This document shows, piece by piece, positions 26,093-49,445 of a stretch of 64,000 nucleotides of DNA. The first letter of the stretch is position 1. Every line of letters begins with the position of its first letter. Source of the DNA: Octopus sinensis. Taxonomy: Eukaryota. The position numbers were made by a program, and so were the translations under genes. The notes under the pieces were generated by a model. That model saw only the letters and a program-made list of their open reading frames with translations, was not told the origin of the DNA and did not search any database. The stretch covers positions 89,900,001 through 89,964,000 of the forward strand of contig NC_043004.1 of the NCBI RefSeq assembly GCF_006345805.1, in the 5' to 3' direction.

Positions 26093-26698
26093 TGTTTATG
26101 AAAAGAACAATGTTCATGAGAGGGACATATTCCTTGGAGAGGGACATATCTGTGCTATATGAATGGCAGTTTGATTATATAGTACTGAAGAATAATCAAG
26201 CCAATCTCAATAATTAGCAATGCTTGTTAAGTAATATATAATTGATTACAACACCAAGTGCACTGTAAAATCTAAGTAGTGTTTCACCCATACCATTTCC
26301 CAAATATTCCTTTGACTATTGTAATAATACGATTGTTATGATACGTATGGTTTCCTAAAATCTAGTTTTTAATATCAGTGTATTTGTGTTCACTATAGAT
26401 TGAGTCTTGAAACAAAATATGCTTATCCAAATTTTGCAATTGTCTTGCAAGTCATTATATATATATATATATATATATATAACTAATGTAGGATAAAATC
26501 TTTTTCAGGAAAAAAATTTTATCAATGGCCAGCATATCAAAAAATACCTTTAAAGGTTAAATTTATAAATAATTTACAAAATTAGGGCAAAATAAAAATT
26601 CTAATGCCAATTATGCCAAAAAAAGACAAAATTGTCAATAACCATTATAATTTATGCGTCTCAAAACAAACCGACAAAAATTTTTTTTAAATCTGTTA

Positions 26699-26759
26699 TT
26701 ACCGTATTGGTCCCAATTTCGGGGTTAATTCATAAGAATTTTCCCCTCTTCAGCGATAA
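26699..26759 (-). ncRNA. Type I hammerhead ribozyme (family H1)
   Basis: Minus strand: TTATCG-CTGAAGA-GGGG(aaaattcttatgaattaa)CCCC-GAAA-TTGG(ga)CCAA-TA/CGGTAA. Confidence 0.85.
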
Positions 26760-27178
26760 ATATGTGAGATATAAGTTAAATACTTACTCATACCCATGGA
26801 AAAAGCAAGTACTAAGTCCTGAGCAGACCTAAGTACCCCAAATATATCCAAAATAGAAAGTCTTCGGCACATCTCGAGAAACGTGTGATTTGAACTAGAA
26901 ACTTTCACAGAGTGAGAGAATCCGGAAGTGAACACTATTCAATTTATAAATAATGTAGGATAAAATTTTTTTGGGGAAAAAAATTTTATCAATGGCCAGC
27001 ATATCAAAGAATACGTTTATAAATAATCTGTGAAAGTTTCTAGTTCAAATCACACGTGTCCCAAGATGTGCCAAAGATTTTCTATTTTGGATATATTTGG
27101 GGTAATTAGGTCTGCTCAGGACTTAGTACTTGCTTTTTCCATGGGTATGAGTAAGTATTTCACTTATATCTCACGTAT

Positions 27179-27239
27179 TTATCGCTGAAGAGGGGAAAAT
27201 TCTTATGAATTAACCCCGAAATTGGGACCAATACGGTAA
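27179..27239 (+). ncRNA. Type I hammerhead ribozyme (family H1)
   Basis: Stem I TTATCG/CGGTAA, CTGAAGA 27185-27191, stem II GGGG/CCCC, GAAA 27218-27221, stem III TTGG/CCAA, AUA site with predicted cut after 27233. Confidence 0.87.
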
Positions 27240-27367
27240 TAACGGATCTTTTAGAAATTTCTATCGGTTTGCTTTGAGATGCATAAATTATAATGGTTAT
27301 TGACAATTTTGTCTTTTTTTTCAGCATATTTGGCATTAGAATTTTTATTTTGCTCTAATTTTGTAAG

Positions 27368-27404
<37 letters not shown>

Positions 27405-27449
27405 ATAAAATCGAAATCGATCAACATCAATGGAATTTGTAGTCGTGGT

Positions 27450-27817
27450 ACCAGTGCCAGTGGCACATAAGAGAACCATCTGAACATGGCCGTAGCCAGC
27501 ACCGCATCGACTGGCCTCCGTGCTGGTGGCACGTAACAAACACCATCCGATCATGGCCGTTGCCAGCCTTGCTTGGCCTCCATGCTGGTGGCACGTAAAA
27601 AGCACCATCTGAGCGTGGCCATTCACCAGCCTCGTCTGGCACCTGTGTCAGTGGCACATAAAAAGCACCCACTACACTCACGGAGTGGTTGGCATTAGGA
27701 AGGGCATCCAGCTGTAGAAACACTGCCAGATCTGACTGGCCTGGTGCAGCCTTCGGGCTTCCCAGACCCAAGTTGAACCGTCCAACCCATGGAAAGCGGA
27801 TATTAAACGATGATGAT
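27450..27817 (+). repeat. Family C repeat
   Basis: Tandem gtg(c/t)cggtggcacgtaa units and (GAT)n tail. Confidence 0.85.
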
Positions 27818-29361: not shown

Positions 29362-29969
29362 CTATAAACAAATGATTCGTTGGTTATTAAGGATTTTTTT
29401 TCCTTAATACTAAAATAATGTTCAAATTTTGTTCAGATTCCTTGAGGCACAAGTCTGAATTACACTATTTTTTACATATTATAAGTGAAGGACAGATATA
29501 GCTGAAATAGGAAGTAATTTTGCATTGTCACATTTTCTCTTTCCAAAAGTAATTAGCAAACAAATAAATAGATAAAAGCAATGAATAGCAGTTGACTGTT
29601 AGGATTTTATTAGTTTGGTTATGTGTTAGTATAAGGCAACATAAGTATGCAGGAGGAAACTGGGATATTGATGCTGATGCTTTCTGAGGACATCAGTGAA
29701 ACAAATTAGCTCCTTGCACTATAGCACTCACTATTGCTATTTATAGGCCAGCAATGGTGCCATTTTAATACAGTTATAAATACTTTCAGTATATTTAGTT
29801 TCATTAATAAAGGAATAAGCCATTATTTTTTTGGTCAATCTTCTCAATGACAATATTACAAATTTAACCCTATTAAGTCAACTGATTTCATGACACAGAG
29901 TTTTTTTAAATAATTAAATCATTATGATTTAATTTTAAAAGACCATGCTTTTAAGGATCATTTCTTAAG

Positions 29970-30230
29970 TATGTGTCACAACGGTATCCGATTCCTTTGA
30001 TCGGTCAACAACATCACGATGATGCGAGATTGTATTGAGTCCTGAGCGTGAAGCAGGATCTCCTGTATCGTTCGTTACTCTGCCTTCAACGAACGTGAGG
30101 AATCCATTGAAGATCGTTCTTGAGAGGTTTAATAACTTCTTAAAGAGGGACTCGATACTTTCTGAGTGATTATAAGAAATGGCGGTGCCCCAGCATGGCC
30201 ACAGCTTGTGAGCTGAAACTAGATAAAAAT
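29970..30230 (+). mobile_element. Probable LINE 3' end sharing its tail with SINE B
   Basis: Unique body followed by ggcggtgccccagcatggccacagct-tgtg-agctgaaactaga; the same tail occurs at 48197-48240 (-). Confidence 0.5.
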
Positions 30231-46422: not shown

Positions 46423-46861
46423 CATAAAGTGCCTCAAATGGGCTGGAGTATTTCTATTTTGGATGTATTTGGGGTACTTAGTTGTGCTCATGACTTAGTA
46501 TTTGCTTCTTCAATGGGTATGAGTAAGTATCTCATTTATTTCTTTTGCCACATGTATCACTGACGAAGAGAGGGCTCTTAGTAGCTAACTCTGAAATTGG
46601 TCCGATATGGTAATAATGGAATTTTTTAGAAATTTCTGTCGACCTTTTTTCGAGTAGCATGCGTATTGTGAAAAAATTATATGGTTAATGGACAATATGT
46701 CCAATTTTTCGGCATATTTGGCATTAGAATTTTTTTCTTTTGCCCTCATTTATGAATTGTTTATAAATTTAACCGTTAAAGGTATTTTTTAATATGCTGG
46801 CCATTGATAAAATTTTTTTCGAGAAAATATTTTTTTTCGAAAAGAATTTTATCCTCACATT

Positions 46862-46863
<2 letters not shown>
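46420..46863 (+). mobile_element. Diverged copy of hammerhead element family H1 inside (AT)n
   Basis: tttctattttggatgtatttggggta...atgggtatgagtaagtat...atatgctggccattgataaaattttt homologous to 26484-27367. Confidence 0.85.
46555..46612 (+). ncRNA. Type I hammerhead ribozyme (H1 variant)
   Basis: TATCA-CTGACGA-AGAG(...)CTCT-GAAA-TTGG(t)CCGA-TA/TGGTA; predicted cut after 46607. Confidence 0.8.
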
Positions 46864-46901
<38 letters not shown>

Positions 46902-47904: not shown

Positions 47905-48165
47905 TCATCATCATCATCATCATCATCATCGTTTAACGTCCGCTTTCCATGCTAGCATGGGTTGGACGGTTCAACTGGGGTCTGGCAAGCCCGAAGGCTG
48001 CACCAGGCCAGTCAGATCTGGCAGTGTTTCTACAGCTGGATGCCCTTCCTAACGCCAACCACTCCGAGAGTGTAGTGGGTGATTTTACGTGCCACCGACA
48101 CAGGTGCCAGACGAGGCTGGCAGATGGCCACGCTCGGATGGTGTTTTCGGTGTTTTTCTTATGTG
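47905..48165 (-). repeat. Family C repeat
   Basis: (CAT)n tail plus reverse-complement body. Confidence 0.85.
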
Positions 48166-48236: not shown

Positions 48237-48286
<50 letters not shown>

Positions 48287-48504
48287 CAATATAGGGTGGC
48301 AAAAAATTTTGTAGAATTTTTTTGCCACCAGCGGCCTAGTGGGAAAAAATTAAATAGTCATAGACCATTTTTAAGTTCAACATCACAATCAAGGAACGGC
48401 CATAATAGGCCATTCACCCACTAGAAATAACAGCCAAAAGCTTCAACCGCAAAATAACATCAATTCCGTAAACCAGGAGAAAATTAAAAAACATTTACCC
48501 TGTA

Positions 48505-48611
48505 ATTTCTTATACGATGCACCGTTTCATCTACTGTTTAATGGTAAACTAACCTGATTAAATTAAATCAAGCCAATCTACCATAGGCCCTTAGATTCAT
48601 CAGTAAGAAAT
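48505..48611 (-). ncRNA. Type I hammerhead ribozyme with long stem II (family H2)
   Basis: Reverse complement of 49185-49291. Confidence 0.85.
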
Positions 48612-49184
48612 AGCCAAGTCGGAACAGATATTTTTCACGAGGCATTCCCGTCCCTGCCTCGGCAATATCTGACCTAAAATTTTCAAATCATCGCACTCGC
48701 GCCAAATTTATCGGCAGCAAATATGGTAGATTGGCTTGATTTAATTTAATCAGGTTAGTTTACCATTAAACAGTAGATGAAACGGTGCATCGTATAAGAA
48801 ATTACAGGGTAAATGTTTTTTAATTTTCTCCTGGTTTACGGAATTGATGTTATTTTGCGGTTGAAGCTTTTGGCTGTTATTTCTAGTGGGTGAATGGCCT
48901 ATTATGGCCGTTCCTTGATTGTGATGTTGAACTTAAAAATGGTCTATGACTATTTAATTTTTTCCCACTAGGCCGCTGGTGGCAAAAAATTTCTACAAAA
49001 TTTTTTGCCACCCTATATTAATTAATTATGAATTTTCTGGTTAATTCCGTAATGGAATCGGCGGCTTATATTTATTTGCTGCCGATAAATTTGGCGCGAG
49101 TGCGACGATTTGAAAATTTTAGGTCAGATATTGCCGAGGCAGGGACGGGAATGCCTCGTGAAAAATATCTGTTCCGACTTGGCT

Positions 49185-49291
49185 ATTTCTTACTGATGAA
49201 TCTAAGGGCCTATGGTAGATTGGCTTGATTTAATTTAATCAGGTTAGTTTACCATTAAACAGTAGATGAAACGGTGCATCGTATAAGAAAT
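49185..49291 (+). ncRNA. Type I hammerhead ribozyme with long stem II (family H2)
   Basis: Stem I ATTTCTTA/TAAGAAAT (8 bp), CTGATGA 49193-49199, stem II ATCTA...TAGAT, GAAA 49268-49271, stem III CGGT(gc)ATCG, GUA site with predicted cut after 49283. Confidence 0.88.
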
Positions 49292-49412
49292 TACAGGGTA
49301 AATGTTTTTTAATTTTCTCCTGGTTTACGGAATTGATGTTATTTTGCGGTTGAAGCTTTTGGCTGTTATTTCTAGTGGGTGAATGGCCTATTATGGCCGT
49401 TCCTTGATTGTG

Positions 49413-49445
<33 letters not shown>

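Follow-up and report, generated by a model that had tools for sequence, protein, structure and literature searches.

Anatomy of the H1 locus

We analysed a 64,000-nucleotide (nt) stretch of the Octopus sinensis genome (NCBI RefSeq assembly GCF_006345805.1, contig NC_043004.1, positions 89,900,001 to 89,964,000 of the forward strand), subsequently called the window; coordinates refer to it unless stated otherwise. At 26455–27399 the window holds two inverted copies of a repeat, named H1 here, which are enclosed by (TA)n microsatellites and each carry a type-I hammerhead ribozyme motif (Table 1). Read in the RNA sense, that is on the minus strand, the left copy consists of a repeat A, a 5′ segment (X), a body (B) with the hammerhead, a second repeat A as the tail and finally the (TA)n tract. 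The two A copies are 91% identical and lie 467 nt apart, in agreement with the 467-nt period given in a first-pass annotation that was made from the sequence alone. As A stands at both ends, just as in the tandems found at 12 other loci (see below), the left copy is a partial tandem of 1.15 units. The H1 unit has a GC content of 30% and its longest open frame comprises 75 amino acids (aa); a frame with reverse transcriptase (RT) and GIY-YIG domains is not encoded.

The inverted arms, previously put at about 340 base pairs (bp), measure about 355 nt in total: a stretch of 294 nt (26618–26911 versus 27027–27320) is 94% complementary and is extended by 74 nt at 85% (26558–26631 versus 27309–27382). 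The right arm ends without repeat A, and the left arm carries it as its tail. The first-pass annotation had also placed two identical hammerhead motifs on opposite strands, (AT)n flanks and a cut after 27233. Both motifs are present and consist of the same 61 nt, (TA)n tracts were found on either side, and the predicted scissile bond on the plus strand falls at that position. According to the same source the arms differ elsewhere while the ribozyme is identical. Global alignment of the arms yielded 27 differences in 356 columns, and the longest difference-free stretch (27176–27243) indeed spans the motif. The identity of the motif thus stands, but clean stretches of 55 and 40 bases occur elsewhere in the arms, and a difference-free run as long as the one observed is expected somewhere in them with a chance of ∼0.09 (arithmetic estimate); the arm identity over the motif is only weakly unusual. 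Five bases that are derived with respect to the family majority are common to both arms, compared to 0.86 expected by chance, which fits an origin of the two arms in one event and from one source RNA.

Table 1. Coordinates of the H1 locus and of the other hammerhead-bearing elements in the window
Feature	Position	Strand	Remarks
(TA)n left flank	26455–26482		microsatellite, likely target site
H1 copy, left, full-length, 1.15 units	26484–27019	-	unit period 467
Repeat A copy 1, 78 nt, 3′ tail of unit	26475–26552	-	hairpin arms within 26492–26523
Body, ∼354 nt	26558–26911		followed by a 30-nt segment before the second A
Repeat A copy 2, 78 nt	26942–27019	-	partial-tandem, pseudo-LTR-like (LTR, long terminal repeat) 5′ end of left copy
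H1 copy, right, inverted, head-to-head	27027–27367	+	5′-truncated, starts at unit position ∼109, short 3′ end
Reverse complement of body	27027–27382		TA repeat from 27368 on
Type-I hammerhead motif, left copy	26699–26759	-	predicted cut between 26705 and 26704
Type-I hammerhead motif, right copy	27179–27239	+	predicted cut after 27233; model R1 score 96.3 bits
(TA)n right flank	27368–27399		microsatellite
H1b single copy, (TA)n-flanked	46425–46870	+	∼77% identical to H1; hammerhead at 46555–46612
Second hammerhead family	48280–49415		identical 107-nt motifs at 48505–48611 (-) and 49185–49291 (+)

H1 copies in the genome and their insertion architecture

The genome searched comprises 2.72 Gb (G000), and all candidate counts are lower bounds. 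An 81-nt hammerhead query returned at least 1622 first-look candidates, with an identity of 96–100% among the 42 matches listed; a 91-nt piece from further downstream gave at least 868 candidates and a 115-nt 3′ piece at least 189. An exact 50-mer of the motif occurs at least 76 times, compared to 0 occurrences of the reversed control. H1 is a high-copy interspersed family with well over a thousand copies, so that the hammerhead-bearing repeat family suggested by the first-pass annotation is real.

Contigs of the runs X1, X2, X10 and X18 were mapped onto the H1 unit and gave coverage; head-to-tail joints (26949 to 26484, a step back of 466) are contained in contigs of X2 and X18. Since related sequence was found in runs under four organism labels, the H1 family is common to relatives. 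The window includes a full-length gene for the U3 small nucleolar RNA at 29939–30170 on the plus strand (Rfam RF00012, 125 bits). With the U3 region as a control X18 proved to be DNA-like; X1, X2 and X10 are ambiguous between RNA and low-pass DNA, because in one U3 contig foreign sequence adjoined the gene on its 5′ as well as its 3′ side.

Individual insertions were compared in a sample of 85 non-redundant loci with 141 copies, collected with three DNA queries (28 + 28 + 29 loci) and excluding the window's own loci as well as two overlapping ones. Positions are given on a reference unit R of 536 nt, which corresponds to 26484–27019 read on the minus strand. The 3′ end is kept (R ≥ 450) in 133 of the 141 copies, with 50 ending at R455–463 and 80 at R527–536, while only 29 reach the 5′ end (R ≤ 70); H1 copies are hence 3′-anchored and 5′-truncated. 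A (TA)≥5 tract lies within 40 nt of 92 of the 133 3′ ends; of 1700 40-mers drawn at random from these loci, 169 contain one. At 12 of the 85 loci units are arranged as partial tandems, with a single A common to both neighbours.

Head-to-head pairs with facing 5′ ends are present at 43 of the 85 loci (a count that includes stubs down to 18 nt), and tail-to-tail pairs at none. The junction points vary from locus to locus and also between the two arms of one pair. Many copies that look solitary carry (TA)n followed by an inverted stub of ∼15–100 nt at their 5′ junction, mostly derived from their own 3′ end. The tails of the pairs are asymmetric: in 30 of 34 classifiable pairs one arm ends with A (R536) and the other without it (R462), compared to ∼47% mixed pairs expected from the end frequencies by simple arithmetic. 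The remaining classifiable pairs are two with A on both arms and two with A on neither; in 9 further pairs an arm ends elsewhere. The pair in the window displays the same asymmetry, as one arm carries the 78-nt tail and the other stops 74 nt short.

According to the first-pass annotation, transcription of the tandem-plus-inverted layout in either direction would meet a self-cleaving motif and form long double-stranded RNA (dsRNA). The layout would on this view be a functional module, for example a source of small RNAs. Long hairpins can feed small-RNA pathways, and a transcript reading through the whole locus is indeed predicted to fold into a hairpin of ∼340 bp with −537 kcal/mol. However, each hammerhead would be paired with its own complement in this hairpin, so neither of them is predicted to fold in the read-through transcript. 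The layout is also variable and asymmetric by locus and absent from about half of the loci, and the copies decay neutrally. We regard a dsRNA module as highly improbable. Because the pairs are always head-to-head, their junctions vary and most copies are single and 5′-truncated, the inverted layout is an integration scar and not a dsRNA device.

Scars of this kind could in principle be left by other retroelement machineries. If H1 were an element resembling short interspersed elements (SINEs) and mobilised by long interspersed elements (LINEs), inverted pairs might arise through twin priming as in L1, with the hammerhead as a mere passenger. LINEs and SINEs, too, are known for truncation at the 5′ side and for simple repeats next to the 3′ end, and no partner of either type, LINE or Penelope-like element (PLE), was identified. 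In L1 twin priming the segment that becomes inverted comes from further upstream on one and the same RNA; in H1, by contrast, both arms carry the 3′ region of the element. Compensatory changes described in the next section argue for selection on the hammerhead. Moreover, PLE behaviour as published (PMC8557442, in excerpt) is matched by the partial tandems with a shared terminal repeat, by the tail present on one side only and by the preference for (TA)n. A LINE-mobilised, SINE-like origin of H1 is consequently unlikely.

The hammerhead motif and the sister subfamily H1b

The motif is arranged in the order helix I, CUGAAGA, helix II, GAAA, helix III, U and A, with the predicted scissile bond before C. 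Helix I consists of 6 bp (UUAUCG with CGGUAA) and helix III of 4 bp; helix II is interrupted by an A-rich 2x2 internal loop, with 4 bp on the side of the core and 5 bp capped by a tetraloop on the other. The three helices form a junction of the type-I kind, in which I is open while II and III are closed by loops. The hammerhead core is numbered C3 U4 G5 A6 N7 G8 A9, G12 A13 A14 and A15.1-U16.1, followed by H17, which is any base except G. All core bases are present, with CUGAAGA, GAAA and finally U and A, the predicted cut lying before C, being read at 27185–27233. A hammerhead descriptor run over the window found 5 motifs, compared to a mean of 0.1 per first-order shuffle and 9 of 100 shuffles with any motif.

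The window also contains a single copy of a sister subfamily, H1b, which gave 1179 first-look candidates in the genome at 99–100% identity. Its core equals that of H1 except for the free position 7. While the flanks of the two subfamilies are ∼77% identical, their stems are set apart by six compensatory changes that affect both sides of a pair. Four of these fall in helix II, split evenly between its outer and inner parts, and one each in helix III and in helix I, there adjacent to the predicted cut. In addition, two distal pairs are lost and one pair has turned into a wobble. Among 17 distinct sequences 92% of the cells were paired, compared to 32–39% when the partners were slid; 15 of 19 pairs showed changes on both sides and none of 500 shuffles reached the observed values. 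Judged from these sequences, the compensatory changes between the subfamilies support selection on the hammerhead. A further locus, L064 (G000:C434:1-2419), carries four H1b units head-to-tail at a spacing of 475–503 nt, followed by an inverted unit.

These changes also bear on a possible derivation of H1 from a DNA transposon, either a foldback element or miniature inverted-repeat transposable element, or a non-autonomous Helitron inserted between A and T, with a hammerhead that arose by chance. The long inverted arms and the (TA)n flanks in the window would fit such an element, as would a 14-bp hairpin located ∼9 nt from the end of the tail and the T following this end. Yet most copies are single arms that lack terminal inverted repeats and are truncated at one end only, the arm junctions differ by locus, and 50 of the 133 3′ ends do not have the hairpin-bearing tail. 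Helitrons begin with 5′-TC and end with CTRR-3′ behind a subterminal hairpin and insert between A and T, whereas the ends of H1 read TTAG or TTGA. A chance origin of the hammerhead is difficult to reconcile with a motif that survives six compensatory changes in a subfamily of 77% identity, or with the excess of motifs in the window over the chance expectation. A DNA transposon derivative therefore appears very improbable.

In the second hammerhead family of the window (Table 1) the arms are 99–100% identical, a direct repeat of 204 nt recurs at a distance of 489 nt and (TA)n lies on both sides; this family is evidently very young. Its head-to-head plus partial-tandem layout resembles that of H1, as the first-pass annotation had pointed out, and the lack of a sequence relationship noted there is confirmed as well: no similarity between the two families was detectable (best blastn E 1.5). 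Hammerhead-like motifs of other families were seen at the loci L008 (1329–1373, 1802–1844), L037 (reverse complement, 547–589), L027 (reverse complement, 827–889), L114 (7015–7059, 7339–7421) and L084 (2614–2685). They were noticed incidentally in sequence flanking the loci compared, and among them is a minimal form of 43–45 nt that occurs as an inverted pair. Hammerhead-like elements of several sequence families thus seem to be plentiful in this genome, and none of these further motifs was detected by Rfam models. Of a different kind is a GC-richer repeat ending in (CAT)n/(ATG)n, recognised by eye at 27420–27800 and 47930–48160 in opposite orientations, which is probably an abundant SINE-like element.

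Mobilisation of H1 and comparison with known systems

According to excerpts of Craig et al. (2021, PMC8557442), PLE insertions are heavily 5′-truncated and often form partial tandems with pseudo-LTRs (pLTRs). An inverted, 5′-truncated copy often adjoins the 5′ end, a short tail is frequently found at one end only, some clades show a bias for (TA)n, and canonical PLE clades contain hammerheads in their pLTRs. We searched the octopus genome for the GIY-YIG domain (PF01541) and obtained 5029 first-look candidates with 147 matches listed. Frames of 775–883 aa combine RVT_1 with a C-terminal GIY-YIG domain, with RVT_1 scores at or just below the curated cut-off and GIY-YIG scores above it. One abundant PLE family (L113, L119–L123 and others) has a 781-aa frame with RT and C-terminal GIY-YIG domain and a 479-aa frame upstream. 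Its copies are 97–99% identical, end at (TA)n and form partial tandems; at L123 a 3′-fragment lies directly upstream of a full copy. The family has apparently been active recently. No descriptor-valid hammerhead was found in the stretches of it that were examined. A separate repeat of ∼260–280 nt, which starts with (TA)n and lies in either orientation beside PLE and H1b copies (L116–L118, G000:C1:207464000-207493999; also L111, L112 and L126), is another element targeting (TA)n.

The locus at 26455–27399 probably represents a single insertion into (TA)n of two head-to-head copies of H1, a non-coding retroposon with predicted self-cutting hammerheads and PLE-style integration. H1 is a retrozyme-type non-autonomous retroelement and is likely spread by PLEs: as its integration behaviour is that described for PLEs, a resident element with RT and GIY-YIG domains likely supplies the enzymes. 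Since H1 does not contain a long frame, it is at most dependent on PLEs and not an autonomous member.

Integration could proceed as follows. Both 3′-OH ends of a cut (TA)n target would prime reverse transcription on the element RNA, with the tail serving as one priming site and a TA-rich tract that lies 74 nt upstream serving as the other. The two complementary DNAs (cDNAs) would then meet and be joined at arbitrary points, and the inverted arrangement itself would be without function. To give partial tandems, the template would have to exceed one unit in length, as a multimer or a circle would. The hammerhead may trim multimeric RNA to 467 nt, with circularisation, in line with proposals made for animal retrozymes, as a possible next step, and may be kept by selection in the master copies. 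For a circular H1 monomer a rod-like fold of modest extent only is predicted (60% paired, z −2.4).

A number of observations weigh against this reading, most of them concerning the hammerhead. The Rfam hammerhead covariance models did not match the H1 motif at the gathering score, and an 86-nt stretch searched alone gave no match even at E ≤ 10. As the same models also miss the other family of the window and four further descriptor-positive motifs of the genome, this negative result has low power. For H1 the hammerhead fold was calculated at −13.8 kcal/mol compared to −19.8 for the minimum-energy fold, and for H1b the respective values are −6.3 and −13.2 kcal/mol. In the competing fold (27174–27244; 46549–46618) the 3′ strand of helix III and the predicted cut site are both taken up in pairing with the 5′ flank, and a C-to-U exchange at position 1.1 in H1b still leaves a pair in the alternative stem. 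The competing minimum-energy fold predicted for H1 and H1b could possibly represent an on/off conformer. In H1b the pair closing helix II is A-U and not G-C, and other hammerheads are less active with this change. For the covariation test the sequences were aligned to the hammerhead model built in this analysis; the alignment represents about three lineages and includes two rows that are weak matches. The hairpin ∼9 nt from the 3′ end and the insertion beside T, finally, are reminiscent of Helitrons.

The behaviour of the motif within the family has to be counted here too. The first-pass annotation had named conservation of the hammerhead at background level as an outcome that would refute its reading, and this outcome was obtained: among copies that had not been chosen via the hammerhead, the majority-base frequency is 0.941 in the motif and 0.961 and 0.943 in the flanks, and bins of 20 nt range from 0.94 to 0.98 in the hammerhead and from 0.92 to 0.98 in the flanks. 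The descriptor is passed by 16 of 32 unselected copies spanning the hammerhead. Since retroposon copies decay neutrally after insertion, selection is readable only between master lineages; the within-family conservation test is uninformative for H1, and the comparison between active subfamilies is the informative one. No accumulation of 5′ ends was seen at the predicted cut site among the genomic copies, and in one unselected set 5 of 49 copies start ∼15 nt downstream of it. This cluster of starts corresponds to unit positions ∼331–337 (∼27249–27255 in the window) and is a possible cDNA-end or junction hot spot.

The same holds for the search for related sequences among PLEs. Comparison of H1, H1b and the second family with 30 GIY-YIG loci, including flanks of 1.5 kb, revealed no significant similarity. 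Longer PLE regions (5 loci of 8 kb, one 30-kb region and 8 loci of 10 kb) were also compared, and the sole match to H1 or H1b in 12 longer PLE loci was a nested H1b-like copy in L113. The 3′ ends of H1 and of PLEs are no more alike than shuffles. The H1b-like copy sits in a 5.9-kb PLE tandem (C1:207.47 Mb) and was considered as a pLTR of this element. This was rejected, as the insert is missing from ten further copies of the PLE and is therefore nested at the (TA)n junction.

H1 copies might alternatively be the 5′-truncated tails, i.e. the pLTR region, of a longer autonomous PLE. The architecture of the insertions matches, tails are mostly what would remain after heavy 5′ truncation, one H1b-like copy does lie inside a PLE tandem junction, and the comparison is a small sample, covering 42 PLE loci where the GIY-YIG search gave 5029 first-look candidates. 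On the other hand, the H1 unit is bounded by repeat A at either end and thereby closes on itself after 467 nt, and 9 of 52 solo copies start at unit positions 40–74, with upstream flanks that share only (TA)n and H1 stubs. Together with the absence of similarity to any PLE locus examined and the nested nature of the one H1b-like insert, this renders a tail of a longer PLE improbable. As a tentative proposal, H1 and H1b may be free-standing hammerhead parasites of PLEs whose scars preserve a record of how they integrate, with priming at two sites (the hairpin-bearing tail and the TA-rich tract) giving rise to the one-sided tail and the competing inactive fold acting as a switch after unit-length processing.

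Mobilisation of animal hammerhead repeats by PLEs has so far been proposed mostly on circumstantial grounds. H1 and H1b offer a clean case, with two young subfamilies of over a thousand copies each, countable PLE-like scars and a compensated ribozyme motif, and the main interest lies in the countable asymmetry of the one-sided tail. H1 could serve as a test bed for the PLE-type building of inverted copies and for the need of self-cleavage for spread. In terms of annotation, it explains common long inverted repeats and hammerhead-like hits missed by Rfam in this genome.

Plant LTR retrozymes are reportedly non-autonomous retroelements in which hammerheads delimit the unit-length RNA; they are said to carry type-III hammerheads in true LTRs, a primer-binding site and a polypurine tract, to be of higher GC content and presumably to be mobilised by Gypsy elements. 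H1 resembles them in being non-autonomous and hammerhead-bearing, but type-III hammerheads, true LTRs, primer-binding site and polypurine tract and the higher GC content are all missing. Animal non-LTR retrozymes, as far as described in excerpts of Cervera and de la Pena (2020, PMC7229834), form AT-rich tandem units of 150–450 bp with type-I hammerheads and circular RNA, and PLEs are their suspected mobilisers. H1 shares with them the non-coding, AT-rich unit of a few hundred bases, the type-I hammerhead, the possibility of head-to-tail arrangement, the presence of PLEs alongside and a copy number in the thousands (PMC7229834, in excerpt). Its unit of 467 nt slightly exceeds the range given there, helix II is long with an internal loop, and H1 occurs mostly as dispersed single copies, truncated copies and inverted pairs, in contrast to the long arrays of retrozymes in that account.

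Our search of the literature for hammerheads or retrozymes in cephalopods or octopus yielded nothing specific; a squid genome paper lists 235 Rfam Hammerhead_1 hits (PMC6962438, in excerpt). For vertebrates, Li, Clavereau and Pollet (2026, bioRxiv 10.64898/2026.07.22.740005, in excerpt) have argued that retrozymes are non-autonomous elements that depend on PLEs and originated from them. That argument, in the part cited, builds on pLTR phylogeny, whereas for H1 no sequence relation to pLTRs was found and the connection rests on insertion anatomy. In comparison to PLEs as they appear in the excerpts of Craig et al. (PMC8557442), H1 is non-coding and has no detectable sequence in common with the sampled PLE copies, its tail measures 74–78 nt instead of 30–40 bp, and helix III of its hammerhead has 4 bp, unlike the minimal form of PLE hammerheads. 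All five structural hallmarks of PLE insertions in that account were measured in H1.

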